Source: Blastocladiella emersonii ATCC 22665 (Eukaryota > Fungi > Blastocladiomycota). Taken from it: DNA of 64,000 nucleotides. The stretch spans positions 1,550,001-1,614,000 of the forward strand of contig JANHCV010000008.1 in NCBI GenBank assembly GCA_025594325.1, read 5' to 3'. Shown piece by piece: positions 5,241 to 64,000 of the stretch (within the stretch, counting starts at the first letter, position 1; every line of letters starts with the position of its first letter). The position numbers were made by a program, and so were the translations under genes. The notes under the pieces were generated by a model. That model did no database searches. It had not been told where the DNA came from and saw nothing but the letters and a program-made list of their open reading frames with translations.

Positions 5241-5246
5241 TTTTTT
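5241..5246 (+). terminator. RNA polymerase III oligo-dT terminator
   Basis: TTTTTT immediately after the tRNA 3' end; mirrored as AAAAAA at 22185-22190. Confidence 0.8.
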
Positions 5247-5720: not shown

Positions 5721-5917
5721 GCCTCCCGGCCAAACTGATTGGATGTGATGAGCTCAGTGCGCTGGCTCGAGGCAGCTGCGCTTGTGCCGCGTCAACCTCG
5801 CCCGCCGGACAACAACAACACTGCCATGGCCAAGTTGGCTACAATTTGATGCGCGCGCCTTCGAAGTGTGCATAACCAGCCGTGTATTACTCGTGAAACC
5901 GCAAACATATTGATTGC

Positions 5918-11112: not shown

Positions 11113-11329
11113 GGGATGGGAGCGGAGTCAGACCAAGTCACCGTGACGCATCGTGCAAGGCTTGGGCAGGGTTTGGAAGGGCGGCGCCACACCTCCACGT
11201 GCCTATCTGACGTCATCCGATCTTCCTCGCTTCGTTCGCTCGATCCGATCGCGTCGTTCTTCTCGCTCCCCTGATCGAGTCCATGCAACGAAACTGAACG
11301 GAAACGAACGAAAGACACTTCTTGCAATC

Positions 11330-15480: not shown

Positions 15481-15976
15481 CATTCCCTCGGAGACACTTC
15501 GTCAACTCGTCACATGCCGTGTATCACTTCCGCGCTCGCCCGGAATCCAGCTCGCGCACCGCTCCAGCTCGCACCGGTCATGAGCGAGTCGGGCGGCGGG
15601 TCCGCGTTGATGGATGATCGAGCGACTGATCGCGGTGCACGGAATTTGAGGTTGAAAGCCCCGCTGCGGTGAGTCGCGGGCGGCTGGGCCGTGGTGGCGC
15701 AGCACGGCACGCGCCACGCGCCGACGCGTCACCCCAGCCCCTGCGCCTCGCCGCTCTTGATTTCGCAACGTGTTTCGGGTTTTGCTTTTGCAACGCAGCG
15801 TGCAACCGTGTTTCGGTGCTGCGGAGCTATCGCGCACGCTCCGTCGCTATTTTCTGCCTGCTCGCTCGGCTTCGGGATGACTGCGCTCGCTCTCGCACCG
15901 CTATAAACCTTCGGCTCGCCCACCGTCCCCGCTCTCCTGTTCAGTATAGACGCTATCGACCTTCATTCAAACCATC

Positions 15977-19776: not shown

Positions 19777-21465
19777 ATGACATTCCAGGCTGTTTTTATC
19801 CCGTCCATCATCGAGCGGATTCTCGTCTTGGCACTTGAGCCGCACCTCGAAGCGGACGGACCCGTTGCCGACGTGGAGTCGCTCTTGCAGTACGCCCGTG
19901 TCCTACCGCGCACTCTCATCCCAAGCGTCGAACGGACTCTCTTGCAGCGCGTACCAAAGTTCTCACTAGATGCGGCAACCGCGCGTGGCAGTTTGCCCGT
20001 GCTGGACCGCTGGGCGGCCCTCGGTCTCCCTCTCGCATGCTCAACCGCTGCTCTCGAAGCGGCCGTGGACGCACAATACCTCGAGACGCTTGAGTGGTGG
20101 CGTGCGTCTGGTAAAATTTACCCCAGCAATGTTCGGGCGTGGCTGGACGGGCTGCATTACCTTTGGGATGTCGACGTTGCTCTCGGTCTCTATCCCATGG
20201 CCGACGACGATCCGAATCGCGCGCTGGCAGTCGACGAGGGCCTCGCCAGCCTGTGCGCCAAAATTGCGGCTGGCACCGCGGATCAGTTCTATCTTGAGTC
20301 GGCGCCCATCTCGTTGGCCGGAGTTCGCATGCTCAACGCAGCCATGGCGAGCCCCACGCAGGCGCTCAAGTCAATCTCGTTTTACGGCTGCACGCTGGAC
20401 CTTCCTCGAGTGCTCGCGCTGCAGCTCCCCGCGTCGTTGCGCGCTGTGCACATTGCAGGCCACTGGCTCGGCGGCTTGTCTAACTCGCCGCCTTCGCCCA
20501 CGACCGCCATGAACTGGCCGCCGGGTCTCGAGTCGCTCGTCATTTCCGAGACCAAGCTGTCTGCCGCCGTACCTCACCTATTTCGTGCCATCCCCGCTAC
20601 GCTTCGGACCCTGTCGATTGCGCTTTGCTCGCTTGACGATCGCGCTACCCTTGACGTTGTTCGCGCTCTTCCGTCGTCCCTTAAGCAGCTTAACCTAACC
20701 GGCAACCATCTCACCGAGACCGGATTTGCAGCAATCGCGTCTCGCCTTCCCGCCTCGCTCCGGAGTCTGTCGATTGGGCACATATCTGGCGACGCGAACA
20801 GCCAGGATATTTTCGCTTCCAGCTCCTCCGCATCCCTGAGCTCACCTTCAGCCGCCGTCCTTCCCGCACAACTTCGGACCATCGAAATCTCGGGGACCGT
20901 TTTGACAAGCCAGCTGGTCAGCACGCTAGGCGATTCGCCGCGGTCCTCTCTTCGTGTGCTCAAGTTTCTTCGCTTTCGATCGGCTAGCACCGATTCAGCA
21001 GCAGCGCTTGCGCGCACACTTCCCGACAGTCTCGAAAATCTGACTGCAGGTGGCTGCTGCTTTCCACAGCTGGGTGTTCCGACACTGCTCTCAGCGCTGC
21101 CGCACTCGCTCACCTTCCTGGACCTCGCCACGTCCAATCTCGGCCCAGCTGGCGCCGAGCTGCTTGCGGCAAAGATGCCTCCTCGTCTCGGCCACCTGAA
21201 CCTGTCGTCAACCAACCTCGGGGATCTGGGTGTTGCGGCGCTTGCTCCAGCACTTCCATCCACGTTGAGCGACTTGCGCCTGAACACCAACAGGATTACA
21301 GACGCTGGTGCGCACATATTGGCGCAGCATCTTCCTGGCGCCCTCAGGAGCCTGGTCATGCCCAACAATCTCGTGACACAGGCAGGGCATGTCGCCATTC
21401 AAGCTTCTGCACCCAAATCGCTCACCTGTCTGGTCGTGCCAGTGACCGGACAGGGGGGTCAGTGA
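19777..21465 (+). CDS. ankyrin-like + RNI-LRR protein (562 aa), family member 4; inverted paralogue of 5918-7615
   Basis: Uninterrupted ORF that aligns colinearly with the 565-aa ORF, including long identical stretches such as HWLGGLSNSPPSPTTAMNWP and DDRATLDVVRALPSSLKQLNLTGNHLTETGFAAI. Confidence 0.82.
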   Translation: MTFQAVFIPSIIERILVLALEPHLEADGPVADVESLLQYARVLPRTLIPSVERTLLQRVPKFSLDAATARGSLPVLDRWAALGLPLACSTAALEAAVDAQYLETLEWWRASGKIYPSNVRAWLDGLHYLWDVDVALGLYPMADDDPNRALAVDEGLASLCAKIAAGTADQFYLESAPISLAGVRMLNAAMASPTQALKSISFYGCTLDLPRVLALQLPASLRAVHIAGHWLGGLSNSPPSPTTAMNWPPGLESLVISETKLSAAVPHLFRAIPATLRTLSIALCSLDDRATLDVVRALPSSLKQLNLTGNHLTETGFAAIASRLPASLRSLSIGHISGDANSQDIFASSSSASLSSPSAAVLPAQLRTIEISGTVLTSQLVSTLGDSPRSSLRVLKFLRFRSASTDSAAALARTLPDSLENLTAGGCCFPQLGVPTLLSALPHSLTFLDLATSNLGPAGAELLAAKMPPRLGHLNLSSTNLGDLGVAALAPALPSTLSDLRLNTNRITDAGAHILAQHLPGALRSLVMPNNLVTQAGHVAIQASAPKSLTCLVVPVTGQGGQ

Positions 21466-21599
21466 GCAATCGGGCTGCTTGCGTTTCCAGGAGGAATATA
21501 CGGCCGGTTATAGACGTTTTGATCGCGCGCGCATAGGTTAGTGTCCAGTTGAGGCCGAGTGATGCGAAGGGTGTGAGCCGCGGGTATGGGTGTGCTCTC

Positions 21600-21910: not shown

Positions 21911-22190
21911 TTGCCGGATGAGACCAACGGTTGGAGCCGTGAAAGTGGTCTTCGGCGATATCAATCACTCGGACCAATTCGAGCAGTTGCAGCAGCGAGG
22001 ACAGAGCGTGAAAGTCAAGGCAGGAACCAGAACGATCTATTTCACGGCGGACCTCGCGCGCGTCGACGAACGCACTGCTGCTTGATTGGCTGTGCGCATC
22101 AAGTTCGACGAGCGCAGTAGCTCGGTAAAACGCGTCGCGACAAAAGGAGGCGCGTGGGGTAACCGACGCGGTGATCCGGGCGGCAAAAAA

Positions 22191-22263
22191 CGAGCATACC
22201 AGGGTTCGAACCTGGGTCCTTCAGTGCCGGAAACTGACGCGGTATCCACTCCGCTATATGCCC
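22191..22263 (-). tRNA. tRNA-Arg(CCG), second identical copy
   Basis: Exact reverse complement of 5168-5240. Confidence 0.93.
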
Positions 22264-22927
22264 TCTCGTGCTGCTGCACAACTGATGGGCGGTCAGGCGG
22301 GATATATAGGCGCGCGACACTTTTCCCGGTCGCCTTCGGTCGGTCAAGGCGGCAGCGACTTGTTGCATTCCCTTCGACAAAGTCGCCATGGCGGAGCGAC
22401 GTGTTGCGCCACTCACGTCACTTCCCACCGCACCATGACGGCCCGATCGGCCGGTCGGCGCTCCTCGTGTGGCTTGCCCCCTTCGCGCTCACTCGCCTGT
22501 CCCGACCTCCGCGGCCAAGGGCGACTCGACCTGCCCCTCTCGGCCACGGCGTCTCGGCGCAACTCCGCGCAACCCAACGCGCGCGTTGACGCCCGGATCG
22601 GGAACAAGGCCGACGGTCGCTCGAACGCGTCGCGCTTCCCACGCTCTCTCCCGATGATCTGGTACCGCTCCACACGACATGAGTGGTGCCGCTGCATCAG
22701 TTGCAACGGCTCGCGGTGCTGTCTGGGAGACGACGGGTGTGCGCCGCAGCGGACCGTTTCGCGTTACCGCAAAGGTTGCTAGTGCTCCGAACGCGTTTCA
22801 GCCTTTTCGCTGTCCATTTATAGGCGTAAGCGGCGGCCGACCGTACATAAACCGCGCGTCCCCCTTCTGCTCTCGCTCTCACCACCAACAGCAACACGAA
22901 GCATATTGCACACACACTCGCAACGAA

Positions 22928-23821
22928 ATGAGCGTCATCCAGCACAACTTCATCGTCTCGCAGGACGCCAGCGGCATGCACATCTCGCAGGACGCGGCCG
23001 TCGGCTCCTTCACGTCGGCGCACGTCGACGCCGGCACGGCCACGGGACTCGTCCAGAACAACATCATCGTGCACAACGCGGCGTCGGGCGCCGACATTGA
23101 CCAGTCGCTGCTGCTCGTCAACGTCACGGACCTGACGGGCCCCGTGCCGCACGGCTTCACGGTCCAGAACAACATCATCCAGGCCAACGACGCGTCGGGC
23201 GTCAACATCCACCAGGCCGGCGACGTCGTCAACGTCGTGTCCGCCGGCGGCCACACGGCCGTCTACGCGACGCCCGGCGTCACTACGGGAACGACGGCGG
23301 TCCAGGCGCAGACGGGCGGCGTCGGCGCGGGCGCGCAGTCGACCACCGTCCACACCACGGTCGGCGGTGCCGACCACGCCGCGGGAGCGACGACGGGCCA
23401 GTGGCAGTCGGCCGCGGGCGACGCCGGCTGGGCACAGACCCAGGTCGTCTCAAGCAACGGGCACGACGTGTCGCAGATCCACTGGACGACGGCCAACCAC
23501 CAGGTCGACGTGGTCGACACGCTGCACGCGGACCAGTGGCAGCTCGGCGCCGGCAGCTCGTCGCAGGGCCAGGTCACGTCCGACACGTTCGTGCACCAGG
23601 CCGCCGCCCCACACGACGACCTGTGGTCGGCCACGCAGTTCCAGGCCCAGGGCACGACCGCCGACCACACGGCGCAGTTCCAGTCGCAGTCGCAGTCGCA
23701 CGACGCCTTCGCGCAGGGCTGGGATCACTCGGCGACGGTCGCTGTGCCCGTCCCAACGCACGAGGCGTCGTCTGCGTGGCACGTTCCGGATTGCTCGACC
23801 GACTTCAGCGGCCTCTGCTAG
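22928..23821 (+). CDS. orphan 297-aa QNNII-repeat protein (copy 2, identical to 3610-4503)
   Basis: Identical translation; ATG at 22928, TAG at 23819-23821. Confidence 0.8.
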   Translation: MSVIQHNFIVSQDASGMHISQDAAVGSFTSAHVDAGTATGLVQNNIIVHNAASGADIDQSLLLVNVTDLTGPVPHGFTVQNNIIQANDASGVNIHQAGDVVNVVSAGGHTAVYATPGVTTGTTAVQAQTGGVGAGAQSTTVHTTVGGADHAAGATTGQWQSAAGDAGWAQTQVVSSNGHDVSQIHWTTANHQVDVVDTLHADQWQLGAGSSSQGQVTSDTFVHQAAAPHDDLWSATQFQAQGTTADHTAQFQSQSQSHDAFAQGWDHSATVAVPVPTHEASSAWHVPDCSTDFSGLC

Positions 23822-24283
23822 TCGCTCTCGCTGTCGCTCTGTCCATACCCACCCTCCCGCTTTGCAAATCATTCCATACACAGTTACACATCAATCAATC
23901 AAACTCGCCTCCCGTGTCGACAGGAACAACCTTTGGTGAACAAGCCGTCAGTCGCGACGTGCCGTGAGAGCCGGGAGCGAGAATCGCGTCCGCACACGGC
24001 GACGCATCTCTGTCTCCCACGCGGCGCGAGACATCTAACCGCCAGCCGTCTCCTCGACCGTTTCGTTTTACTCTCCCCGCAACCACTCTCTATGCAATGT
24101 ATCACACTCGCTAGGCCAAATGGATCACGCTCGCACCACGCGCAACTTGAACCTGGGCCTCGATGCTGCCGCCGCCCCAGCGCCCGTGCAAGCGCTCGCC
24201 TGAGGTCACGCACATGTTGAGCAAGTCCGGCTGCCTGTCGCCTGCCCGCGCCGCTGTGACGCGAGCCGCGCGACCCCGCTTGG

Positions 24284-45605: not shown

Positions 45606-45729
45606 GGTATCGATGCGAGCGGCGGAGGAGGGAGGGCCCCGGACGGCCATGTCAGTGGGGCGCCAAACAATTCCCGATCTTCGGTCACGTGAGTGAGACG
45701 TGATATCCCGACGCGTCTCGCGCCGAACC

Positions 45730-45819
45730 GGGGGCGGCATCGAAGTGGGAGACCGCAAGCCCTACTAGGCTCGTGACCGCGGGTCAACGTGGCGCGTGAA
45801 AGCGACGCGTCGTCGCGCT
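45730..45819. repeat. left TIR
   Basis: GGGGGCGGCATCGAAGTGGGAGAC.. is the reverse complement of 50272-50361 (88/90). Confidence 0.92.
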
Positions 45820-45936: not shown

Positions 45937-48900
45937 ATGGACGCTGCGATTAACTACCCCGACGGCTACGTGTACCTGATGCCGCTGCGGCCGCATGACC
46001 TCAAGACGATCCGCGGCTTTGCCATCGCTGCCGCTAAGCGCCGTGCCGCGTTCGTCACCCGGCTCGCGTACCAGCGCCTCGGCGAGCAGGTGACGTACCT
46101 GCACGAGCAGGGCGCGCACCTGATCACGCGACAAGGCCAAGCGTGCCTCGCCGCCATGATCCATGAGGCGACGATCCGGGCGAACGCCACAGTGAACCGC
46201 GCGATGCGCACGCGCAATCAGCAGATCCGCGAGGCTTGGATCGAATACCGCGCCGCCATGGAGGACTACGCTGAGCGCGCGGCCGACGTCGCCGGGTACG
46301 CCTACGAGCTCGAGCACCTCAAGGACTACCTGTACGACTAAGGGGCTCCCGGTCGAGTCGACCCGCAGCAACCGTCACCGACTGCAACTCCGCTTCATCC
46401 TGCGCCGACGGATGCGGCGCTGTTCTCGGAGCCACCGCATGGCCCCGAACCGGCTGGTCCTGCGCCTGCTCGTCCGACCACCGCTGAACAGCGCAAGCGT
46501 GGTCTCGCCGACGCCGAGTGGGAGTTCATTGCGGACCGCGTCCGCGAGCTGGTTCTCGAGCTCAAGGGCCGGCCGAACGGCACACAGGACGCGTTCGCGG
46601 CGTATGACATGGCCACTGCGCTATCGCACGGCGGGCTCGCTGTTGGCAACGTCGACTACCACATGATCCAGATGCACGTGTATGAGAAAACACATGACGT
46701 TGACCGCCGCACCCGCGTTTATCCCAACTGCGCCATCGAATTCGCCATACGCGGCACCCTCCTTGACGGCGCCCAGGCAATGGCGCGCCTGGGTCTCATC
46801 TTCCCAGTCGCATGCGAGCGCACCGTGCGCAAGCGGCTCGCGAACGGGGCCATCCTCAACGGCGACCAGGACCTGCGGGCGTACCGCACAACGTTTGGCG
46901 TGCGCACGGCCGGGATCCAGGCAGCCATCGCGTACGACAAAAAGTACCGCGAAGCACATGGCGGCGCGCGGTGCCTCTTCAACAACCTCGTCAATGAAAC
47001 CGACTTCTCGGTGCTGTTCAAGAAGTACTCCAAGGGCATGATCACGGGCGGGGTCGAGTACGGCAAGTTCCAGCAGCCGTGGCACACGAACCTGCCGCCC
47101 GACTTCCCGTCGACCACCGAGGCAGTCGAGTCGCTCCTCATCGAGGCCGAGGACAAGTACGACGCCATCTGCGCCGCCAGGAACGTGACAGAGGGCTGCG
47201 CGCTGTACGACGACTTCACCAAGCGGGCGCTGCCGTTCCTGCCGCACATTGAGTTCCTGCGCGAGCTGACCGATGACCACGTCACGAAAATAACCAACAA
47301 GGACAAGGCGCGCAAGTCGAAGCGCAAGACGCCCGCCAACAATTCCGTGGCTGCTGGCTCGAGTTCTGAACCTCACGATGCACTAGACTTGGCCGCGCTT
47401 GATAATGACGAGGAGGAGGAGTACGACGAAGATGATGACGACGTGATCATGGTTGACGCGGTGGCCGAATCCGGCGCGCTCGAGTCGACCAGCAGCGCGA
47501 CCATTGGCATGGCCGTCTCGCAGGTCGTCGGCGATTTGGTCATCCCGGCCGTTGGGGTGACAGTCCAAGAGCGGGTCACCGCGGCCTGCACAGGCTCCCG
47601 GCTCACGTTCCCCCAGATCAAATCCATCTCGGCATTCACGGCGAGGTCGGTCCACTACAAGGGGCTCATGTCCCACGTGTCCATGGCCGCGCGCCGCGAC
47701 GGCGAGGAGCATCCGCTCGTGCTGGCCGGCGAGGACTGGAAAGAGGTCCTTGGCAAGCGGTTCGAGTGGTACAGGGACATGTACCTCGCGCCGATCCAGG
47801 AGGCCTCGCGGCTGCAGGTCTTCATGCTCGCGTCGGCGGACCGCCAGTTCCAGGTCTGCATCGCCGCGACGCTCGTACCCAAAGGGCTGCCAATTGACGC
47901 AACCGCGTCGATGCTGGCCCAGATCAAGTTCAAGTGCAAGGAGCACGACCTCACCGTCGTTTCGAACGGGTGCGTATGCGATTGTTTCTTGGACTGACTT
48001 GGCAACAAGCTCACTGCTGGTCATGGAGCATTCTCTAGTTTCAACGGCGCGTCAGCTGGTCTCATCCACGCCAACTACACGAGCGAGGCCGTGCTCGAGC
48101 GCTTGAAAAAGGGTGAGCCCCCGCTGCGCGTCTCACCAAGCAACGTCACGCTGCCCAAGGACAAGGCGGCCATCATCACTGCGATCACGGACGGGCCGGA
48201 TGCGCTTGGCGTCATGGACCCGACCACGCCCTGCGCAACGGTCGACCTTTCCTGGGAGATCATGCGCCGCATGAAGCTGGCACCGACGCGCAAGGTCTTC
48301 AGCGACCCCGACATGATTTGCTTCATGGTGCTGGCTGGGCCCAACCTCGCGTCAGCGAAGCTAGCGATGCTGCACCCGCTCGCTGAAGGTGGGCGCCCGA
48401 ACCCGGACCCTGCACCCTGCGCGACAGTCCCCGCCGTAGTTCCTGTCCCCGCCAACGCGATCGACCCGGCCACCGAGTTTGGCAAGCGCACCTTCGAGTA
48501 CGAGGCCGCCATCGAAGAAGCGCTTCGAGCCGGCGGGTACCTGCAGCAGGCGCTGACCGACTGCGCCATGGTCAAAAAGCGCGTGCTCGCTCAAGCGCTC
48601 GCCGCCCTCAAGGTGCCGGGCAATGGAAAGACCAAGATGGAGAACGGCGTCCCCGCGACGCTCAAGACCCTGGTCCCCGTGCGCGAGTCCCTGATCGAGC
48701 TGCTCGCCAATGGCATCATGGACATTGTCGCGCGCAACGGAGCCGAGACCTGGAAGGGCGGCTACTGGGGACACTCGAGCGGTCCCAACGCGCGCGACTT
48801 CATTCCGATCGTGGACTATTCCCACGCCCTCAAGCGCTCCGTGACGCAGGTGCACGAGTCCAAGTGCAGCGACAAGAAGACGACGAAGCGCGCGCAGGCG

Positions 48901-50153
48901 CCCGTGCCCGTGATCTTGGCCGAGGCACGGCGTACGGCCGATCCGAGCGTGCTCGCACAGCTCGACGTCGAATCGAGTCCGCTCCGCCGTCTCGGGATCG
49001 CGAACCCGGGCGGGCCCTTCCACGTGCGCTGGGAGAAGCGCAACAAGCAGAACGAGCGAGAGGCGATGCGTATGCTCGATCCCGACGTCATCGCCGCGCT
49101 CCACGAGTACGCGGCCCTGGTCGGCCCCGCGGCAGTTGGCGAGTACGAGCGTGCGGCCACGGCGATCACGTCGCTGTACGACGTCCACGACGATCCAGAC
49201 CTCACGCTCAAGCAGATGCGCGAGCTCCTCGTGCCCGTGCGCGAGTGGCTCTTCAAGTCGCTGGCCGAGCGCATGTTCTCCGTCGCGTACAAGAAACGGC
49301 GCAACGACCTGTCCAACGGGCTCAACTTCGAGACGGGCATCGCCCTGATGATGCTCGTCCTCGCCGTCGAGTTTCTCGTCAAGCTAGCCCATGACGAGGT
49401 CGACGAGAACAAGCCGCTCTGGGTCATCCTGCGCGCATTCAGTGCTTTTTCTCGCTGATCAAGGCCATCGGCAGCCGCGACGGCCGCGGGCTCAAGCTGA
49501 GCACGGCCACCAATATTGTGCGGATGATGGCCAAGTACAACAAGCTCGAGCGCCAGAACCTGCTGACGATCGAGGAGCTCGGCTTCATGACGACCGGGCA
49601 GAGTCGCCGCGCGAGCTACACGAACCGGCGCGAAGCCGAGCGCGCAAAAGCGCACGCGGCGTCCATGGCGGCAGCGGCGGCGGCATCCTCAGCCGCGACT
49701 GGCCCTGCAGCACCCGGACCAGCGGTACGCGCGCGCGGTGGAGAAGACGGATCCAACGATGAGGACAACGTGCACGAGCTGTCCGTCGCGGGATACGACA
49801 AGGACCGGCCGACATGGCGGGGCCCAGTCAAGACGAAGGGCGGTGCGCCGATCCGGCCCAACTTCTTCGTGGCGGAGCGGTCCCTCAACGAGATCATACG
49901 GCGCGCCACTATGGCGATGCGGCCCAACGGGCCCGGCGCCAAGAGCTCAACGGCGAAGCGCAAGGCCAGCGCAGAGCCAATGGAGCTCGGTATTGACGCG
50001 GGGCGCCAGCGGGAGGAGCACGGCAACAAGCGCCAGTGCAAGAACAAGCCGAAGAGCGTCGGCCCACAGGCCGAGCTCGACCTCGCCAAGGATGGGATCA
50101 TTGTGTTGGCGCAGCTCCAATCCATTCACCACTACGGGCCGTACAAGGAGTAG
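45937..50153 (+). pseudogene. P-element-like transposase (~1,380 aa reconstructed): in-frame TAA at 46339, intron 47970-48038, frameshifting deletion at ~49442
   Basis: Motif order matches P/THAP9: ERTVRKRL; LVNET..ITGGVEYG; ASRLQVFMLAS; VVSNGFNGAS; IVDYSHALKR (D(2)H motif); LRAFS/FFSLIKAIG (QDxLEnfFsxiR region). ORFs 45937 and 46609 are in the same frame. Confidence 0.72.
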
Positions 50154-50271: not shown

Positions 50272-50361
50272 AGCGCGCCGACGCGTCGCTTTCACGCGCC
50301 ACGTTGACCCGCGGTCACGAGCCTAGTAGGGCTTGCCGTCTCCCACTTCGATGCCGCCCCC
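50272..50361. repeat. right TIR
   Basis: Reverse complement of 45730-45819. Confidence 0.92.
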
Positions 50362-50463
50362 TGGCCGCCGCGCTCCTTTGAGAGCTTCCCCGCCGCTTCG
50401 CAGCCAAGGACCGCCGGCTGCAGCCACCTCAGCCCAGCTTTCAACAATAGGTCAATTCTCCAC

Positions 50464-54649: not shown

Positions 54650-56330
54650 ATGAATCATGTGCGCGGCTTTGGCGACCTGCCGTGCAAATAGCTAGACTTG
54701 GTCCTGGAAATTGCGGACCCGAGATCCACACTCGCAGCCGCATCACGCTCGCTCCACTTCTTGTCGGCAGACTGGGAGGTCAGTGAAATATGGTTCCATT
54801 CCCGCCTTGCGCACGTGGCACTGGCGCACCGCGAGCAGTGCCGCCGATCCTTGTTGTGCTGGCCTCAACTCGGCAGCCTTCCAAAGAATACGGTCGGCTT
54901 TGCGTTGTATGTACTATGCCGATGGATGCGTCAGCACCACAGCGAGCTTCTCATTTACATCACACGACTGCGTCTTGACGACTACGCGTACCAGAAATCC
55001 CGCTCTGCGCAAGGCGTTACGGCGTTGGAAGTCAAACTCTAAGTCTTGATCTTGAGCGTCACGGGTCAGCGCGATCTTTCGCCATTTGAGCAACCGCTCC
55101 CAGCCTTCATTGTCGTCATCGTGTGCGCTGTTTCCACGGGCCGGGTCGCTGTCCTCAACAGCTGCCCCGCTATCCTCCTTGAGCACTGCCCTGCGCTACT
55201 CGTGACCCGGTTGCAATGGCGAGAGTGGCACGCGCTCTGCTTGTTCAACCTGCTCGCCGAGAACCCCACTGCCAACAAATGGGACGAGAACGGCTTTGAT
55301 GCCCCAGAGTGGTCCGAGCCCGCCCAGTTCGTCGACTACCCGGGCTTTCTTGCGTTCGCTACGTTCCAACTCCCCGCGCTCAAAATGCTCTCGCAGCCAC
55401 AGTTTGCCTTGGATGAACCGCGTGTTCTCGCATTCCTCTCGGTTGATTCCATCTTTATCTCGACTGGGGGTGTGTGCGTTGCACACTCTGTATCAGCAGT
55501 AGGCGACTAGACGCATTCCAGGTCGAAAAACTTGTCAGGTTTGAGTCTGAGGCGACGCGCGTGTGTCGCGGCGGCCATCGAGTTCCACGCGTCGCGCACC
55601 GAGTTTTGCGCCGTGCTGAGGACCTGGTCGCTCCAATCGTCGATGCACTCTGGATGCTGGTCCAACACAACGTTTGCTCGGCGCGAGCAAAGAAATTCGA
55701 TCACGCGCTGCGAGGCGTTGCAGTTGCGCAGGTCCTGGAGCACGTTGAGGAACTCCGCGTCGGTCGACTGCTGTATCTGCTGGACAAGAGAAAAGACCGA
55801 GTCAAAGGCGAGCCACTGATCGCGACCAATGTTGGCGTTGGTTCGAGTTTTGCTGACCGCTGGCCACTCCTTAAGCTTCGACCCGCGCTTCTTCTTCTGC
55901 TGCTGAGGCTCGCCATCGACCTGCACCAAGTCTCCATCATGAGCTGCATCCACCTCGCGCTCTGGTTCACGATTGACCAGCTGCTCGGATGGAACCGTGA
56001 GCGAGCGGGCCATGACAGGCTCTAACTGGAATAAGTAGCCGAACCCCGCGAGGACTTGCAGGCCACCAAATGGACAATGGTTGCGGCTCGGATACAGCGC
56101 TTCCAAACACGATGCGCCGCGGCAAGGAGTTCGGTGCCAACATGGAGCTTTTGTCAACGAGGATGAAGTAGACATGGCGTAAAGACTCCATATTCTTCTT
56201 GATTGCGTTGATTACCGACTTGGTTGCTGAAACGGTCGTACCGATACCGCACACGGCGTGGATCTTGGATCCGCCAATGGGCATCGCGTCTACCTCAGTT
56301 AGCGAGCAGATTCTAAGCCACAAACTCCCA
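54650..56330 (-). pseudogene. PIF1-family (SF1B) helicase relic, Helitron-type
   Basis: Degenerate motifs in order: IGGSKIH, ILVDKSSML (DExSM), PFGGLQVL..YLFQLEPV (FGG..GDfxQLxPV), QWLAFDSVFSL..Q.TDAEFLNVLQDLR. Several frameshifts. Confidence 0.7.
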
Positions 56331-57044
56331 GCCTCTGGCGGCGAACATGTCTCGAACCGAGTTGATGACGCGACTCAAATGCACCTGTGGGAGCCACCAA
56401 AGTCGAAATCGGGAATGAGTTGGAAAGCGCCGCGGCGCGGGCACGGCTGGCGCACCACACGCACGCTCCCACAAGCCGCACGTCCTGCTAGAGTAGTTTA
56501 TGTGCAGCTTCCCCGGCTTGGCTCTATATTTTACTCCTCCTATTACCCAGACGCGCCGGCTTCTCACGTTTTCACACCCGGCCCCAGCCCCGCCCCCGCA
56601 TCACCACCGCCGCGCCGCAACTACACACACACACGCTTATCGCCGTCCCATCGCATGCGCCAACCGCTCGGCTTCTTTATCATCCTCTCATTTGCCAAAC
56701 CACGCCGTCTTTGGGACGATTTCAGAAATTGCAGCTGGAGCTACGCTCCAGCTGAGTCTTCTCCGTGCGCGAGACGCCTCTTTTTTCTTTCCTTTTCCTG
56801 CGATTGCTTGCTCTTTGCTTTCCTTTGTGAGCGCACTAATCGATTGCAAGTAACGGTCAATCGTCTTTTATACTTGGCCTTCACCTTTGCCCCGTTGCGT
56901 GCCACACTGCTCGCTGTTTGTGGCTCATTTGCCTTCCACTTATGCCGCCTGTTTTCACACCCCGCAGAGCTCGATTCCTATCACCATTCACCCCTTTTCC
57001 CTGTTGCGCTAGATCTTCGATTACCTCACGGTTGTGTTTATGAG

Positions 57045-57072
57045 CTGAGGTATCCTTATAAGGATACCTCAG
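57045..57072. repeat. 28-bp perfect palindrome CTGAGGTATCCTTATAAGGATACCTCAG
   Basis: Self-complementary over all 28 nt. Confidence 0.95.
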
Positions 57073-57113
57073 GATAGGATTAAATGGCTATAGAGGTAGA
57101 TGTGGTTAGGTCT

Positions 57114-57150
57114 ATCCCTGGGGACGCCCGTCAGAAACATCCCCAGGGAT
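57114..57150. repeat. hairpin with 11-bp stem and 15-nt loop
   Basis: ATCCCTGGGGA-cgcccgtcagaaaca-TCCCCAGGGAT. Confidence 0.85.
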
Positions 57151-57396
57151 GCGCGCGCGCCCGCAGCCACGAAGTGGCGGAGGGTCCTCACGTGATAAGT
57201 CGACGCGTCTCCAAGTGTCTCGCGGCCCACGTGACGGTCATCTGATCCGCGACGCGTCTCGAAATGACTTTGCGATTATTCGATGAATTGAAATCCACGA
57301 CGGGCATGGGCGATATTGGCAAACGTCTATGAATCCGTCGGCGCGGTGAGGAAATGGTGAGTCGGTTGGTGAGAGTATTGGTGAGGTCGGTGAGAG

Positions 57397-57543
57397 TGTG
57401 TCCCTGTGTCCCAGTGTCCCAGCGATTTTCACTTGTAGCTCGTATTTTGAACTGAAAACAGCATACTAACTAAGTATGTTAGTTATATTTTTCAAATTTC
57501 TAAAAAAGAATATTTAGCTGGGACACTGGGACACTGGGACACA
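57397..57543. repeat. iteron cassette 1: (TGTCCC[A/T]G)x3 - 93-bp AT-rich spacer - (CTGGGACA)x3
   Basis: 27-bp inverted arms at 57397-57423 and 57517-57543 (1 mismatch). Confidence 0.9.
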
Positions 57544-57704
57544 AGTAGGTTGATAGAGTAGACGGCCATTTGGTAGTGGGTTTCAGTCGTCATAGTCCAT
57601 GCCATCTGAGAAGCGGGCGCGGCGGATTTCCAGGTCACTGGGCGATCCAGCTGTGGGACCGAGTGAGTCAGTCAGTGAGAGTATTGATGAGGGTCGGTGC
57701 GATC

Positions 57705-57851
57705 TGTGTCCCAGTGTCCCAGTGTCCCAGCACCTTTCACTTGTAGCTCGTATTTTGAACTGAAAACAACATACATACTAAGTATGTTACTTTTTTTTCT
57801 TAAATTTATAGAAAAGAATATTTAGCTGGGACACAGGGACACAGGGACACA
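57705..57851. repeat. iteron cassette 2 (direct repeat of cassette 1, period 308 bp)
   Basis: Arms at 57705-57731 and 57825-57851, with the same 93-bp spacer length and near-identical spacer sequence. Confidence 0.9.
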
Positions 57852-58300
57852 AGTAGGTTGATAGAGTAGGCGGCGAAAGTGGAAGTGAAGTGAAGTGAAA
57901 GTCGGTCCACCAAGCCACGCGTGATCACCAGCCACCCCCATGTAATTATCGATGACCAAGCGGTTCATAATCGACCTCGCCCCACCGCTTGCCAAGCTCA
58001 TTACCAAGGCCTTGATTGAGCAGGCTTGGCGTGGAGATTCCCTGCTTGCGTCCCTATAGCGGGTTGAGTAACTGCCTTGTTGCTGCAACGAAAGACCCCT
58101 ATAAGAACCAAGTACGGCCCGCCTCGTCCACGCTCTCTCATGGCTTCGGTCATCACTCCCTCCTCGCCCTTTGCAGATGCTTGATCATAGGTGGTGCACC
58201 ATCATGTAAAAGTTTCTGCACTGGTTTGGCCAGGTTCATTGCATGGAGTCGCGAACTATGCCTTGGATCTGGCCCTCCCTTTGTTTGGTGCTGTGTGGTT

Positions 58301-58400
58301 TGACGAGTTTTTTGGGACTTGTGCGTTTACGATTTGGCGTGCTGTGTGCGGCTGACGAGTTTTTTGGGACTTGTGCGTTTACGATTTGGCGTGCTGTGTG
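58301..58400. repeat. 48-bp identical direct repeat, period 52
   Basis: tgacgagttttttgggacttgtgcgtttacgatttggcgtgctgtgtg at 58301-58348 and 58353-58400. Confidence 0.9.
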
Positions 58401-58642
58401 GAAAGAGATTTTGCTTGCGTATTTGTGTAATCAAACGACAATGACGCCGTCGCCGCGTTCTCTGGTTCGTTCTTGTGACTGGCCACCACAGGAATGGATT
58501 GTAGAGCGCGGCGACAGTCCAAAGGGCGGGACTGGCCACCCCGTTCTGGATGCTGAGTCCCCATTGCTACTTTACGTCCATGTTGCGATCGCGTTTGACG
58601 AGTCACGTTTGGCAAATTTAGTGCCGCGAAACTCTAAGAATA

Positions 58643-59128
58643 ATGAGTTCGCCAGATATCGTGTTGAAGGAATTCCGCAAACGGTTTGTTGATGTTCAGA
58701 ATGGGCGGATATACATTCGAATGAAGGACAACTCGCTTAAAGAGACTGGGTTGAGTAAAAATACCAAAGGGTACCTCCAGGTTTTGATCGAAGGTCGGAA
58801 GCAAAGCGTTCGTCGCATTATCATGACTGTCCACCTTGGCCGCGAACTACTTCCAGGAGAACAAGTGAATCACATTAATCACAAACGGGATGACAATCGG
58901 ATTGCGAACTTGGAAATCGTCTCGGCCCAACAAAACAGTCAATGGCGAAGCACTACGACTAGAGTCACACAGCGTCGAAACGGTAAATGGCAAGCGATGA
59001 TCTGGACAGATGGCCGTCAAAGACACATTGGTTCGTACAAAACCCGCGAAGAAGCCTTAGTCGCACGCCACGCCGCTGCTCGCGCCCTCAACGCTCAAGG
59101 TCACCGATTCTACATCCCAGAAGAGTAA
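58643..59128 (+). CDS. HNH endonuclease with C-terminal AP2-like DNA-binding domain
   Basis: GYLQV..RRII..QVNHINHKRDDNRIANLEIVSAQQN (HNH_3-type) followed by GKWQAMI..RQRHIGSYKTREEALVAR (AP2-like). Confidence 0.88.
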   Translation: MSSPDIVLKEFRKRFVDVQNGRIYIRMKDNSLKETGLSKNTKGYLQVLIEGRKQSVRRIIMTVHLGRELLPGEQVNHINHKRDDNRIANLEIVSAQQNSQWRSTTTRVTQRRNGKWQAMIWTDGRQRHIGSYKTREEALVARHAAARALNAQGHRFYIPEE

Positions 59129-59363
59129 TGTCACTCGGCTTCCCTACCCGCGTCTCCTTTCCAGAAAATATACAAGTCAAACAAGGCACGTCATCCAAAT
59201 GCTCTTCTACGCGATAGCCATCCACAAGTCCACTCATTGACTCTTCATACTCATAAAGGCACGCCCAGCAAATGGGCTCTCCGCAAGATTCACAGAATGC
59301 GTGTAGATCAAATACGTCGACTTGGCATGCACAGCTGTTACAGGGCGAGTCCAGGGTCTCCAT
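59088..59363 (-). CDS. small acidic Cys-rich protein (91 aa; CxxC pairs)
   Basis: CNSC..CESC..CWAC..CLTC; start at METLD chosen by eye. Confidence 0.45.
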   Translation of the reverse strand: METLDSPCNSCACQVDVFDLHAFCESCGEPICWACLYEYEESMSGLVDGYRVEEHLDDVPCLTCIFSGKETRVGKPSDITLLGCRIGDLER

Positions 59364-59437
59364 ACTGTGATCACGCGCTGTGTATTTAAACCGCCAAACG
59401 CATTCAAGCAGTTCTTTCTTTACTTGTCGTTCTGTAA

Positions 59438-59950
59438 ATGGAAGATTCCAAAACAAAGTGCGCGACCTGTTCGAGCGAGCCCCCAACCGGCCGTCTCAAG
59501 CAGTGCCAAGGGTGCGGCGTGGAAGTTTGTAAGATTTGTTTGAAACGCGTTACCAAGCTCTGCCCTGTTTGTAGATCCGGCGCACAGCCCTTTGTCATTG
59601 ACCTTTTCAAAGTCCTGACTAAACGCAATGAATATCTACAGCGGCAGCTCCAGCAGCCTCGCACAGAATGTCTGGGTTGTATCCACCACCCCCACGCTCT
59701 GGCACGGATATCAGTAGCAAATGAAGAGGTTTTTCGTAAGACCCGCGACCAGATGAAGGCTGACTACGAGCACGCACTCGCGCAAAAGCGCCAACAATGG
59801 TTCCTGATGGGTGCAGAGTCGATTCTCAAAGACACTGATCCGGCTAAACTTGCTATTCAGGAGAAAGTCTCTGGTGGATTCGGAGACGTGTACAACAAGT
59901 ACCGGACATCCCCACGGATGTGCAAAGTAAACGAGTGGAACGCACACTGA
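59438..59950 (+). CDS. RING-like zinc-finger protein (170 aa) with coiled-coil tail
   Basis: C-x2-C-x11-C-x2-C-x4-C-x2-C-x6-C-x2-C (CATC..CQGC..CKIC..CPVC); ATG in TAAATG context. Confidence 0.7.
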   Translation: MEDSKTKCATCSSEPPTGRLKQCQGCGVEVCKICLKRVTKLCPVCRSGAQPFVIDLFKVLTKRNEYLQRQLQQPRTECLGCIHHPHALARISVANEEVFRKTRDQMKADYEHALAQKRQQWFLMGAESILKDTDPAKLAIQEKVSGGFGDVYNKYRTSPRMCKVNEWNAH

Positions 59951-59974
59951 ATTCTTTCGCTCAAGACTTTGTAA

Positions 59975-60139
59975 ATGGCAGTACCAACTCGATTCCAGGC
60001 GCCATGCGACCACGATCGCATTCCAGGTTGGCTTGATCAGCACGATATCGTCCGTGCAACCATTCTCTGTCCGCGCTGCGAACGCCGAGTGACGTACAAA
60101 CGCACAGACTACGATAGCGACGAATATTTTAGCGACTAA
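59975..60139 (+). CDS. small 54-aa protein with CxH..CPRC and acidic tail
   Basis: MAVPTRFQAPCDHDRIPGWLDQHDIVRATILCPRCERRVTYKRTDYDSDEYFSD; TAAATG start; tandem to the RING ORF. Confidence 0.45.
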   Translation: MAVPTRFQAPCDHDRIPGWLDQHDIVRATILCPRCERRVTYKRTDYDSDEYFSD

Positions 60140-60441
60140 GTCTTTCAGAGGTACATGGAGGTAATTCTGAAAGGTAATTCATTCAAAGTACACGGTGTAT
60201 TTCTCGCCGGGCTTCAGTGTGCCACGGACCGCCGTGTACTTGATCGTTCCTGGCTTTGGAGCGCTCAGCATCTCGATGGGCAAGACAGTCTCGGGGATGT
60301 ACACGGTGGGATTCGGGGATGGCGTACCCTGGGAAGTAATACAACTCGTTCCCATGGTGTTCCTTGACTTTGCGGCCGAAAAGAATCCCGTAGCACATTG
60401 CGTTTGAACGAGTTGCCGCTTACCATCGCCCCGAAAAAACT

Positions 60442-61656
60442 TTAGTGGATCACGGTTGTGCCCAAAGCCATTGCGACCACCACGACGTCGTGCTCAACCC
60501 AAGCATCAAAGCGGATAGGCGGAGAGTCGGCGGGTAGAGTCAGAATCAGATCAATGGGCAGCTGTGAGACCACACCGTCGCTGTTGCCACTGATAGCTGA
60601 TCGGACGACGTTCAAATTCTGAGCAATGAAGAACTTGGTACTCCCGGGACCATAGTAATTTGAGAACTCCACAACCCCACGGACGTTATGCGAAAACGCC
60701 TTGACGACCTCACACCACGCCTCTGAAACATCAGCCACAGGCTTTGATGGGTAATAAGTATTGCCAATCTTGAACTGGTAAGAAAGCAGACGACACGCGC
60801 GGGTGTACGTCTTGGACATTTCTGTGATTTGGTTTAGATTGACCAGACTTGACAGCTGCATAGACGCGATCACAGTCTTTTGGGAGCGGTTGCGGTTAGG
60901 GATGACGATGGTGTTTACGCCTGCATTCAGGGTTTTACCAAAGTGAGTAAAGCTCGAGAAGTGAAACTTGATTCCCTCGTTCATCCAGCGCTTTGCAAGT
61001 ACAGCGTTGATCTGGGGCGACAGCTCTACCTCCTCAAACTGGAGCTCACAGTTGGTCAGTGCATACTCAAGGTTCTCTGAGGGAGCGCCGTTCTCGGTGG
61101 TGACGTGCCACTGTGCGCCAGGACGAAGGTTGATGTCAATGTCGATGAACCCGAACATGGACGTGGGAATAAAGGTCTTCACGTCGAACAGTCCCTTGAG
61201 ATGGACCATGTACTTGCGGCCGAGCGGGCGCGATGTCTTTGGCCCACAGCCCAGGTGGAAAAGATTCTTGCGCTGGGACTCGTTGCAAGTCGTATCGAGC
61301 AGGATAGCATGGAGGCGCGCGTACTCGTTCTCTTCGAATAGGACTGTGCCTTTCTCGTCAGTTGCACGGATGCTTTCGATGCAGCTGAACGCGTTCTCGT
61401 CCATGACGATCTGGTTATTGCTCGAAGTGGCATTGTGATTGAATACAAAGAACAGTGTCGTCGGATCAATCATCTTAGTCTTTACGCCAGGGATGCGGAA
61501 CCGGATCTGGCGATTGGCATCCGAGAACACTCCGCCAGTGGTTGAACGAACCGTGTTGTACACACGAGTCCCTGAAACGTGCTCAGGAACGCGGTAAAGG
61601 ATTTCCTCGGGCGCGATTTCGGGCTGGGAGTCGTAGAGTTTTAGCGAATTGGACAT
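60442..61656 (-). CDS. major capsid protein, PLV/virophage-like double jelly-roll (404 aa)
   Basis: Beta-rich pattern typical of PLV MCPs: QIRFRIPG..IDPTTLFFVF, SCIESIRA..LFEENEYARL, LQFEEVEL, SYQFKIGNTYYPSKPV, FFIAQNL..SG, FDAWVEHDVVV. Located directly after penton and ATPase. Confidence 0.8.
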   Translation of the reverse strand: MSNSLKLYDSQPEIAPEEILYRVPEHVSGTRVYNTVRSTTGGVFSDANRQIRFRIPGVKTKMIDPTTLFFVFNHNATSSNNQIVMDENAFSCIESIRATDEKGTVLFEENEYARLHAILLDTTCNESQRKNLFHLGCGPKTSRPLGRKYMVHLKGLFDVKTFIPTSMFGFIDIDINLRPGAQWHVTTENGAPSENLEYALTNCELQFEEVELSPQINAVLAKRWMNEGIKFHFSSFTHFGKTLNAGVNTIVIPNRNRSQKTVIASMQLSSLVNLNQITEMSKTYTRACRLLSYQFKIGNTYYPSKPVADVSEAWCEVVKAFSHNVRGVVEFSNYYGPGSTKFFIAQNLNVVRSAISGNSDGVVSQLPIDLILTLPADSPPIRFDAWVEHDVVVVAMALGTTVIH

Positions 61657-61687
61657 TTAATGTCGCGCAATAAAAAAAAAGTACACT

Positions 61688-62881
61688 TTATGAGAAACAC
61701 AGCGTCATAAACCACTGGCAACTTGTGGTATCGAGCCGACGGCCTGTGGACCCTTCGGAAAACTCGATCAAGAACGTGTCCAGGTCGCGCTGGTACCCGA
61801 ACCAGCTCATACTGGTCGATGGACTGCGATAGGTTGTGGCATATCCTGGTGAACTGTTGATGGGAAAGGCAGCGAGAACGGGTTTGTGATTGGCGCCATG
61901 AAGACGTTTATTGGTGGTCGCACTCCCAAGTTCCGAGCTGTGAATCACAAGTGAGAACAGTCCGCCGGTCATGTCCACGCAACGGTCACCCACAATCAGT
62001 CGAGCTGGCACGTTAAACTGTTCGTGTGAGAGACCTAAAAAGTCGCTTGCGAGTTTACATGGATGGACGATGAAACACTCTGCATTTGCGCCCTTGACAA
62101 GTCGGAGTTCAGCAACGAAGCGAATGGCATTGAAACTGACCTCAAGTTTCAGATCGCCGTCGCTGTTGGGATTAAAGTACCCAGTCACGCTGGCCAGAGT
62201 GGATGCAAGTGTTGCCTGCGTATAGAACCCGCGGGGAATCGTGTACTTTGACCGTAACCCAGTGACTTGCCCACTCTTGATTTGATCCAGCGATGTTCCA
62301 AGCGGGAACACAGTCATATCCAGGAAGTCGTTTGTTGCGTCGACGCTATAGATGTTGTTCTCTATTGTAAAATCCAAGAGTCGGACGTGCGAGAACCTTG
62401 AACCAGGTGGGAGCGGAATACGACCATCCGCCTGGACATCCGCGTTGGTGAAAGTGAAGACGTGCTCCTCAGTGGGATGTGACGCCTGGTGCTGTAGTTC
62501 GAGTGCCTTTTGCCGAGCATCAACCGGTGCCGTGTAGACCGCACTTGATACTGTATCGACGGGAACGGCGTCAATGGAGAACGGCATGGTCGCAGTCGCT
62601 TCCAGATCACGGCGAGTCACTGTGGGTACGCTCGGAAGTTCCTTGAGCATGCGTCGCTTAGCCTTTGCCTCAGCCGACACTGGGTTCACTGGTCGAAAGA
62701 CTTTTTTTGTGCCATCCCTGGAGATACTCACAATCTTCTTGATCTTGAGGACGCGTTTCATGGGCCTTTGCGCAATGGGGATATCGTTCTCCTTGTTTCG
62801 GATCCGGTCAGTGTCAGTCTCGGGCCGCGACCCAGTTGGTGCGCGGGACGTTGGACGCGTGCTTGGGCGTTGCCGATTCAT
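61688..62881 (-). CDS. minor capsid protein (penton) with ~135-aa basic N-terminal extension (397 aa)
   Basis: VRLLDFTIENNIYSVDATND, YTIPRGFYTQATLASTL, LASDFLGL, VDMTGG..LVIHS, LAAFPIN..G..TTY and RRLD...QWFMTLCF follow the PLV/virophage penton pattern. Confidence 0.78.
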   Translation of the reverse strand: MNRQRPSTRPTSRAPTGSRPETDTDRIRNKENDIPIAQRPMKRVLKIKKIVSISRDGTKKVFRPVNPVSAEAKAKRRMLKELPSVPTVTRRDLEATATMPFSIDAVPVDTVSSAVYTAPVDARQKALELQHQASHPTEEHVFTFTNADVQADGRIPLPPGSRFSHVRLLDFTIENNIYSVDATNDFLDMTVFPLGTSLDQIKSGQVTGLRSKYTIPRGFYTQATLASTLASVTGYFNPNSDGDLKLEVSFNAIRFVAELRLVKGANAECFIVHPCKLASDFLGLSHEQFNVPARLIVGDRCVDMTGGLFSLVIHSSELGSATTNKRLHGANHKPVLAAFPINSSPGYATTYRSPSTSMSWFGYQRDLDTFLIEFSEGSTGRRLDTTSCQWFMTLCFS

Positions 62882-62899
62882 TTACAGTACCCAAGGAAT

Positions 62900-63661
62900 T
62901 TAATTCACGTACTTTTCGAACCGTTTGGTGAGCAGTCTCGCCTTGCTATTCTTGTAATTGACGTGCATGAACGAATAGTCCTCGGCAGTACAGTGATTAT
63001 AGATCTGCAACCACCGGTCCCAAGTCTTGCCACAATGATGCTCCTCGTAAAAGTTTTTCACTTCCTTTTGATTGCCCGTTGAGAACAACAGAAAGTTGGT
63101 TGTGTTGAGACGAAGCGGCTTGGCAAGCTGGAAGTAAGATTGTGTGACGTAGACCGTGGAAATCATGTAGTGTCGCCCGTTCATGACACAATCAATGAGG
63201 ACTTTGCTTTTAAGCACACCCGTTGCCGCGCAATCGTCGAGTACAAGGAGTACGGGCTGTCGATCGCGTTTGGGGATGGCTTTTTGCGACTCGATGAGTT
63301 CGTAGACCACGTTTTCAAAGGTCGCGGCATCCGTATGGACATCCGCCTCGGATGGAACGGTGGGGTCTTCAAGGTCATCGTCTGGGAACAGTCGCGCTTC
63401 GGCCTTGTCTTTGCGGCGGGGCTTTGAGAGGATTCCTGGCGCGAAGATGTGTTTCCACTTCTCGTCGCTTTCAAACGATGGACAGCACACGACAAGCCGG
63501 CTAAACTGGCCCTTGTAAAAGCGTGTGATCATGTTCAGTAGCGTGAGCGTCTTGCCACTTCCACGACATGCTACGATCGCACACGAAAAGCACACTTTGG
63601 GGATGAGCGAGTCCGGGCCCTTGGCGTCGCCCTTTTCTCGTAACGGTTTGATTTCGAACAT
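62900..63661 (-). CDS. A32-like (FtsK/HerA superfamily) genome-packaging ATPase (253 aa)
   Basis: Walker A ACRGSGKT, Walker B LLVLDD, then NGRHYMIS..VTQSY..L...LRLN, the A32-specific RHxxxS..xQ..R-N motifs. Confidence 0.93.
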   Translation of the reverse strand: MFEIKPLREKGDAKGPDSLIPKVCFSCAIVACRGSGKTLTLLNMITRFYKGQFSRLVVCCPSFESDEKWKHIFAPGILSKPRRKDKAEARLFPDDDLEDPTVPSEADVHTDAATFENVVYELIESQKAIPKRDRQPVLLVLDDCAATGVLKSKVLIDCVMNGRHYMISTVYVTQSYFQLAKPLRLNTTNFLLFSTGNQKEVKNFYEEHHCGKTWDRWLQIYNHCTAEDYSFMHVNYKNSKARLLTKRFEKYVN

Positions 63662-63798
63662 CTTTACGGTATACCATCAAAAGTATTTGCGTTTGAGCCA
63701 CAGAGCACACTGGACACACTCTACGGCGAGAACGTATCCGCCAAAATACATTAAAGCAGTTGAGAACATGACTGATTTAATGTGTGATGAGAAAATAT

Positions 63799-64000
63799 TT
63801 AGGCGCCTTCTGAAAGCGCTCGGTCTATAGCGTGCCCTACGTGGGCAATACTGTCAAGAATCGGATCAACGCGGAGAATGGCTTCCTCAGCCAGGCCGCT
63901 TGCAAGGTTCACGCCAGCTGCAATGTCGCGAAGGACGGGAATCGGAAGACTCGAGATCATGCCGCTGTAGTACTTGGTATTATGTATAACGGGCGAGACT
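63799..64000 (-). CDS. 3' end of a further viral ORF running in from beyond the window
   Basis: Open frame VSPVIHNTKYYSGMISSLPIPVLRDIAAGVNLASGLAEEAILRVDPILDSIAHVGHAIDRALSEGA* co-oriented with the ATPase. Confidence 0.5.
   Translation of the reverse strand, partial: VSPVIHNTKYYSGMISSLPIPVLRDIAAGVNLASGLAEEAILRVDPILDSIAHVGHAIDRALSEGA

Follow-up and report, generated by a model that had tools for sequence, protein, structure and literature searches.

The right end of a 64,000-nt stretch of the Blastocladiella emersonii ATCC 22665 genome (assembly GCA_025594325.1, contig JANHCV010000008.1, positions 1,550,001–1,614,000 of the forward strand; hereafter the window) raises the question of whether this zoosporic fungus carries an endogenous virus and, if so, to which group the virus belongs, whether it is intact, and whether it relies on a giant virus. 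The initial annotation, made from the letters alone, had placed an endogenous Polinton-like or virophage-like DNA virus from position 57340 to the window edge. Our analysis indicates that the segment at 57045–64000 is very probably the left arm, 7 kb long, of a Polinton-like virus (PLV), and that a blastocladialean genome likely harbours this element as a few integrated, near-identical copies.

The segment contains three unbroken, co-oriented open reading frames (ORFs) of 253, 397, and 404 amino acids (aa) on the minus strand, separated by spacers of 18 and 31 nt, exactly as first described:

60442–61656, minus strand: major capsid protein (MCP), 404 aa, predicted double jelly-roll (AlphaFold and structure search); starts in TAAATG
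61688–62881, minus strand: likely penton (minor capsid protein, mCP), 397 aa, from its position and language-model neighbours; starts in TAAATG
62900–63661, minus strand: packaging ATPase of the A32 family, 253 aa (match to Pfam Pox_A32 with E = 3.7e-9, better than the curated cut-off)

When the segment was base-shuffled 200 times, the longest ORF obtained was 247 aa and none of the shuffles (0/200) reached 250 aa, so the three long ORFs are not due to chance. The lower GC content noted earlier was also borne out (51.2% in 57045–64000 versus 63.4% in 1–57044), and the GC content at third codon positions was 0.58–0.66 in the three viral ORFs versus 0.65–0.93 in four host ORFs. A phmmer search of the PDB with the A32 protein returned nothing useful.

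The 404-aa protein had no sequence match in Pfam (E ≤ 0.1), PHROG, NCBIfam, or the PDB, and Capsid_NCLDV and Capsid_N were among the Pfam families that it did not match. Among 1.84 billion representative proteins, 143 homologs were found at E ≤ 1e-3, most of them 360–700 aa long, and the window sequence was aligned with 74 of these, picked by score, length, and coverage. The AlphaFold model of the protein had a predicted local distance difference test score (pLDDT) of 91.7 and a predicted template modeling score of 0.89. Compared with 48,161 solved chains, the model was most similar to the PBCV-1 capsid (8h2i_bu; Z = 29.3, root-mean-square deviation of 3.1, 351 residues aligned), followed by the capsids of faustovirus (Z = 27.0), Sputnik (22.9), mavirus (21.3), and PRD1 (16.6). 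Ranks 1–16 (Z from 29.3 to 9.0) consisted entirely of capsid or scaffold proteins of viruses, the first non-viral match had a Z of 7.3, and Foldseek was concordant (E = 1e-15). The language-model Atlas recognition score of 2053 was under the tool's mark of 2300 and is weak evidence. The 404-aa ORF is therefore predicted, from the fold model, to be the double jelly-roll capsid that the initial annotation expected.

The 397-aa ORF probably encodes the penton, as judged from its gene position between the A32 and MCP genes and from its language-model neighbours. It begins with a basic N-terminal extension of approximately 130 aa; when its C-terminal 263 residues were compared with the Atlas, the neighbours, at a score of 0.97, were virus clusters, and in one of these, 26% of the members carried PF21507 (Sputnik V18/19). 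By eye, its motif order follows that of a protein labelled "possible mCP" in the PMC7805220 supplement. The single-sequence model of the protein was poor (pLDDT of 38.9), and fold searches with it gave noise, with no penton among the matches listed. The proposed assignment of the three genes to the Preplasmiviricota morphogenesis module was thus upheld in part: the capsid by its fold model and the ATPase by its Pox_A32 match, the penton fold (pLDDT of 39) not.

To which known elements is the segment related? The closest named relative of the window capsid was AMAG_06710 of Allomyces macrogynus (54–55% identity), an A. javanicus copy was likewise among the close relatives, and the A32 ATPase was 65% identical to A. 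macrogynus AMAG_18713. The named relatives are located on fungal contigs of 0.9–1.7 Mb. In capsid trees from which fragments and two over-long matches were excluded, and in which no published reference set was included, the window capsid grouped with those of A. macrogynus and A. javanicus in one clade (SH-aLRT 99 in the 43-row tree; SH-like support 99 in the 135-row tree), with a single environmental protein as its sister (support 98 and 97, respectively). In addition, a B. emersonii gene model of 53 aa, located on a contig of 1.74 Mb, was identical over 52 residues to capsid residues 167–218. The Allomyces relatives and this identical stretch agree with the zoosporic-fungal host that had been proposed from sequence features, and they point to B. 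emersonii or a close relative as the likely host on the strength of a viral gene rather than a host marker. None of five element proteins had an exact-sequence entry in the protein collection searched.

The initial annotation held that such viruses were barely characterised in fungi, which overstated the novelty: a full PLV in Spizellomyces punctatus and integrated-PLV MCP, ATPase, and helicase genes in A. macrogynus were reported in 2021 (PMC7805220). A D5 primase-helicase has been noted in A. macrogynus (PMC5294986). A large survey of integrated PLVs excluded fungi (PMC10120064), and we found no Blastocladiella PLV in print, in a search with weak coverage of subscription journals. AMAG_06710 is presumably the MCP of PMC7805220. 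The A. macrogynus genes are like those of the window (capsid 55%, ATPase 65%, one clade in both trees); the available text and supplement rows of that paper describe neither their ends nor their copy number or promoter, and the host of the window element is likely Blastocladiella. The PLVs of the S. punctatus group (PC_0050; PMC7805220) are integrated in a zoosporic fungus and have a terminal inverted repeat (TIR), an MCP, a possible mCP, and an ATPase, which parallels the likely integration, probable TIR, MCP, likely penton, and ATPase of the window element, and by eye the motif order of their MCP and possible mCP resembles that in the window. However, the MCP of one group member has 554 aa versus 404 aa in the window, homologs carrying three short motifs of the group's MCP (a rough proxy) fell in a clade separate from the window's, and the group uses a protein-primed family B DNA polymerase (pPolB), has a TIR of 154 bp, and frequently encodes a chitinase; the window showed none of these. 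The window element is very probably a well-preserved endogenous PLV end, of a kind already glimpsed in Allomyces.

A second capsid family was detected in B. emersonii ATCC 22665 itself. It appeared as a 26-member cluster, and all 15 members listed are hypothetical proteins on contigs of 1.25–2.84 Mb. Seven of these 15 are 406-aa capsid homologs, 94–98% alike and 23–24% identical to the window capsid, and the other eight are a 303-aa penton-like protein or fragments of it; among the members listed, five adjacent pairs have the 303-aa gene at a locus tag next to a capsid gene. These sequences suggest a second, multi-copy PLV-like family in this fungus, annotated only as hypothetical proteins. 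Related loci were found neither in viral contigs (queries: the MCP, a 4-member MCP alignment, A32, a second-family protein, and a further alignment) nor in metagenome contigs (queries: an alignment or a second-family protein); the pattern of the palindrome described below was likewise absent from viral contigs, and tblastn against phages returned nothing.

Where does the element begin, and is it joined to fungal DNA? We compared the window with contigs of four sequencing runs (X1–X4), all from one sample, which may be the window's own source. The following features define the ends:

57045–57072, no strand: perfect palindrome of 28 bp at the left tip, likely a terminal hairpin
57074–57657, no strand: probable TIR of ~600 bp, suggested by a depth step and loose contig ends
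63662–64000, no strand: continuation of the element past the window edge, from an X2 contig

The left border given in the initial annotation, 57340, has to be moved by ~290 nt leftward to ~57045, where the palindrome coincides with an upward step in contig depth. This palindrome is the longest of five perfect palindromes of at least 16 bp in the 64-kb window, and its chance expectation is 5e-4. An X2 contig with the host flank (three other letters) departs from the window at 57051, which would place the insertion point inside the palindrome, although this flank may be paralogous. Depths in X1 were 290 for the flank contig that showed no difference from the window, 1346 for the contig at 57074–57363, and 413–656 for the gene body, with 146 as the lowest depth of a unique host contig; in X2, the contig at 57074–57363 had a depth of 296. 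Relative to the mean of the body contigs, the depth at 57074–57363 was 2.5-fold in X1 and 1.55-fold in X2, and contigs continued with sequence unlike the window at 57628 (X2) and 57657 (X1 and X2). Because the depth step and the loose ends fit a TIR of ~600 bp, 57074–57657 is a probable TIR, which would occur twice, once per end, in each of a few copies and have its other end beyond the window. PLVs have TIRs and a target-site duplication and are 15–30 kb long. On the other side, an X2 contig of 4478 nt spans 62534–64000 and then runs for 3011 nt more past 64000. An 11-bp inverted repeat lies directly inside the tip at 57113–57149. The insertion flank at 56336–57044 is itself repeated, with an identical form at a depth of 290 and a 91–93% alike form at a depth of 162 in X1.

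Whether the element is intact was judged from its genes and from its sibling copies. Besides the structural genes, the segment carries four smaller ORFs:

58643–59128, plus strand: HNH endonuclease, 161 aa (Pfam HNH_3, E = 8e-10; phrog_99, E = 2e-28 over residues 17–149)
59088–59363, minus strand: Cys-rich ORF, 91 aa, possible zinc finger (weak FYVE match, E = 0.04, below the cut-off)
59438–59950, plus strand: RING-like protein, 170 aa (zf-C3HC4_3, E = 2.7e-4, below the curated cut-off); starts in TAAATG
59975–60139, plus strand: Cys/His ORF, 54 aa; starts in TAAATG

Of the accessory HNH-AP2 and RING genes named initially, the HNH gene held up (HNH_3, E = 8e-10); the C-terminal part of its product matched no Pfam family at E ≤ 1, which leaves the AP2-like label as one given by eye, and the RING match fell below the cut-off. 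The 54-aa ORF had no Pfam or PHROG match.

The nine X1 and X2 body contigs used for depth differed from the window by 1–10 letters and had no gaps, and two low-depth contigs had three (X3) and five (X4) gaps. The body contigs had 2.8–4.5 times the lowest host depth in X1 and 3.2–5.5 times in X2, values that are not copy numbers and that GC bias may inflate. Seven variants were listed within ORFs, as a selection from 40 listed of 316 variants: all four in the capsid and penton genes were silent, all three in the HNH and RING genes changed a residue, and none produced a stop. Near-identical sibling copies fit a recent spread, which is the part of the earlier description as a recent provirus that finds support here; the heavily decayed neighbours contrasted with it were recognizable by eye for a split leucine-rich repeat (LRR) gene and a frameshifted helicase-like piece.

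Several observations weigh against the identification as an integrated PLV, in addition to the limits on depth and on the choice of variants just given. The solved folds nearest to the MCP are giant-virus capsids, not virophage capsids. Together with a match of the MCP profile to PBCV-1 MCPv4 (E = 9e-5) and the presence of Mycodnaviridae in Allomyces (PMC13533422), these PBCV-1 and faustovirus folds would suit a piece of an endogenous giant virus of the Mycodnaviridae. We consider that origin highly improbable: the window capsid lacks a Pfam family at E ≤ 0.1, only 2 of the 75 members of the MCP alignment weakly matched Capsid_N, the packed A32-penton-MCP trio adjoins a short TIR-like end, and the authors of PMC7805220 assigned the A. 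macrogynus genes to a PLV. Among the ORFs scanned in the 7 kb, no giant-virus core gene was matched. The penton candidate had no Pfam, PDB, or homolog match (homologs were sought with residues 135–397), and neither BLAST nor a hidden Markov model gave a significant match between it and the 303-aa penton-like proteins of the second family in B. emersonii.

The left join (57045–57074) was bridged by none of the 16 contig pieces listed out of 92, and the X2 contig that leaves the window seven letters inside the palindrome makes the exact tip uncertain. An unbridged join next to a repeated flank is what an assembly chimera or a contaminant, such as a free virus fused to a host contig, might produce. 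This explanation is very unlikely, since the host and viral sides occur in the same runs at depths within ~5-fold of each other, with 30/30 bins covered in X1–X3, and since two other fungal assemblies have the relatives on contigs of Mb size. The DNA flanking the element is eukaryotic, with CNNM, cyclin, and LRR genes.

The sole public piece identical to the capsid is the 53-aa model, which may be a broken sibling copy or a bad gene model. Like a model of 145 aa from A. macrogynus, it represents a partial capsid; the right part of the element lies outside the window, and the insertion is in repeat-rich DNA; all of this would suit a recent insertion whose left arm is intact while the element as a whole is dead, its replication or integration genes being already broken. 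Such an outcome is a realistic prospect, though short of an even chance, given that the five main ORFs are all open, that the sibling contigs of X1 and X2 differ little from the window and are free of gaps, and that none of the variants listed in the capsid and penton genes alters a residue. For the integrated PLV that we favor, we regard the chances of the whole element being intact as evenly balanced.

How might such an element replicate? In agreement with the initial annotation, which had found no polymerase, integrase, or protease in the window, no replicase (pPolB or primase-helicase), tyrosine recombinase (YR) or RVE integrase family, or maturation cysteine protease was matched among the element ORFs scanned in the 7 kb within the window. 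The combination of pPolB, RVE integrase, and protease that marks animal-type Mavericks/Polintons would likewise be located beyond it. Two origin-like structures were found in its left part:

57397–57543, no strand: origin-like hairpin 1, 147 nt, with three 8-nt units per inverted arm
57705–57851, no strand: origin-like hairpin 2, 147 nt, a direct copy of hairpin 1

In hairpin 1, 27-bp inverted arms flank a 93-nt core with 76% AT, and its fold had a z of −6.5, with none of 100 shuffles equally low. Hairpin 2, which likewise has three 8-nt units per arm and a core with 76% AT, follows at a spacing of 308 nt and is 88% identical over 212 nt. The contig depth of hairpin 1 was ~2-fold that of hairpin 2, as expected if only hairpin 1 lies within the TIR, and a third variant of the 8-nt unit is present in the sequencing runs. 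We infer that the 8-nt arrays around the AT-rich core are replication origins. A perfect direct repeat of 48 nt with a spacing of 52 nt (58301–58400) lies upstream of the HNH gene.

The palindrome at the tip may also be a protelomerase target or the core site of a tyrosine recombinase, a form that we take to be 11+6+11 bp. We favor a hairpin tip because it has a direct published precedent, the terminal palindromes beside TIRs in PLVs and virophages with non-pPolB replication genes, for which a hairpin model was put forward (bioRxiv 10.64898/2026.07.28.741278). In the same study, PLVs of subtype 4 and virophages of Halocafeteria seosinensis have a palindrome that borders the TIR on its outer side, as next to the probable TIR of the window, and HNH and RING accessory genes, comparable to the HNH and RING-like genes here; they differ in their protist host, in the length of the palindrome (52 nt versus 28 nt in the window), and in having a known RVE integrase and target-site duplication. 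The replicase and integrase of the window element presumably lie to the right, and the replicase would be a primase-helicase rather than pPolB, given the Halocafeteria precedent and the Allomyces helicase. In the mechanism that we propose, the element would be copied or excised from the chromosome, and the tip palindrome would fold into a hairpin that primes synthesis of the excised element; alternatively, a primase-helicase would be recruited to the 8-nt arrays and melt the AT core. The capsid and penton would then assemble an icosahedral particle into which A32 would pump the DNA, and an integrase would insert new copies into repeat-rich host DNA.

Does the element depend on a giant virus? 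The hexamer TAAATG contains the start codons of the capsid, penton, RING, and 54-aa ORFs, that is, 4/7 gene starts, compared with 2 of the 199 remaining ATGs of the element (binomial probability of 2e-6, uncorrected for a post hoc choice among 64 trimers). In poxvirus late promoters, TAAAT followed by G overlaps the start codon (PMC11980589), and endogenous virophages answer only giant viruses that share their late promoter (bioRxiv 10.1101/2025.10.09.676808). Allomyces carries giant viruses of the Mycodnaviridae, and 30 of 58 Allomyces isolates were positive by PCR for giant-virus capsid genes (PMC13533422); the available text of this paper does not mention promoters, including any use of TAAATG by Mycodnaviridae, and its main text does not mention the genus Blastocladiella. 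As the least certain part of our reading, we tentatively suggest that a co-infecting giant virus supplies the late transcription apparatus that recognizes the TAAATG starts, an outcome to which we give clearly less than an even chance and which would make the element a virophage in lifestyle. The description as virophage-like would apply to lifestyle at most, since neither Pfam nor fold rank marked the capsid as virophage-type; one of the 75 members of the MCP alignment weakly matched MCP_V20_C. Virophages such as Sputnik and mavirus have the double jelly-roll capsid, penton, and A32 trio that the window likely carries and are matched to their helper by promoter (bioRxiv 10.1101/2025.10.09.676808), but the window capsid is shorter than virophage capsids, Sputnik and mavirus rank lower by fold (Z = 22.9 and 21.3 versus 29.3), and no virophage-type protease was found among the window ORFs scanned. 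The integrated PLVs Tsv-S2a and Tsv-S3b of Tetraselmis striata, which have a conserved structural module, provide a model for helper dependence (bioRxiv 10.1101/2025.10.09.676808); reactivation by a giant virus was shown in that alga.

The motif was noticed post hoc, and one of the seven starts, that of the 54-aa ORF, is uncertain. The A32 and HNH genes, two of the clearest in the element, do not start in TAAATG, and an A-rich start context alone could yield the motif. These points fit a self-sufficient PLV, nuclear or in the form of a capsid-bearing transposon, that is transcribed by host RNA polymerase II with no giant virus involved and in which TAAATG is simply an A-rich context; the absence of a Blastocladiella giant virus from the main text of PMC13533422 is consistent with this as well. 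Against it, TAAATG is far over background and stands on both structural genes, in the manner of late promoters (PMC11980589), and giant-virus capsid genes are frequent among the Allomyces isolates. We regard self-sufficiency, which departs from the helper-dependent PLV in lifestyle only, as a strong contender at slightly below even chances. The most far-reaching form of the helper-dependent reading is that blastocladialean fungi carry working, multi-copy, hairpin-tipped provirophages whose TAAATG genes are switched on by the late machinery of Mycodnaviridae, which they would curb, and that this is the first virophage defence in Fungi, with two distinct PLV families in B. emersonii, a laboratory model; as a whole, this is unlikely.

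Few DNA viruses of fungi are known, although elements like this one had already been seen in blastoclad fungi. The value of this one lies in its defined tip and candidate helper promoter, and in a group of hosts that can be cultured and has giant viruses as well. An unbroken multi-copy PLV with these properties in a culturable blastoclad would make a fungal virophage-type defence testable, and likewise whether terminal palindromes prime PLV replication.

Other features were observed in the host part of the window. A high-depth repeat at 55463–56284 (2000–3000 in X1) has a frameshifted reading that by its motifs presumably resembles a PIF1-type helicase; it had no Pfam, NCBIfam, or PDB match, and it is a candidate Helitron remnant or piece of another PLV. 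Two inverted host duplications (3552–5372 with 22059–23874, 99.6% over 1.8 kb; 5849–7758 with 19636–21534, 80.5% over 1.9 kb) contain LRR genes and a family-less gene starting MSVIQHN, with a third relative at 15950–16972. At 46342–49458, a pair of long neighbouring ORFs, of 551 and 486 aa when counted between stops, had no Pfam match; the pair lies between 100-nt inverted copies (45719–45819 and 50272–50372, 94%) and is possibly a DNA transposon. Finally, 10294–11127 on the minus strand encodes the C-terminal part of a protein of the MCRA (oleate hydratase) family (Pfam, E = 2e-89), a family known mainly from bacteria.

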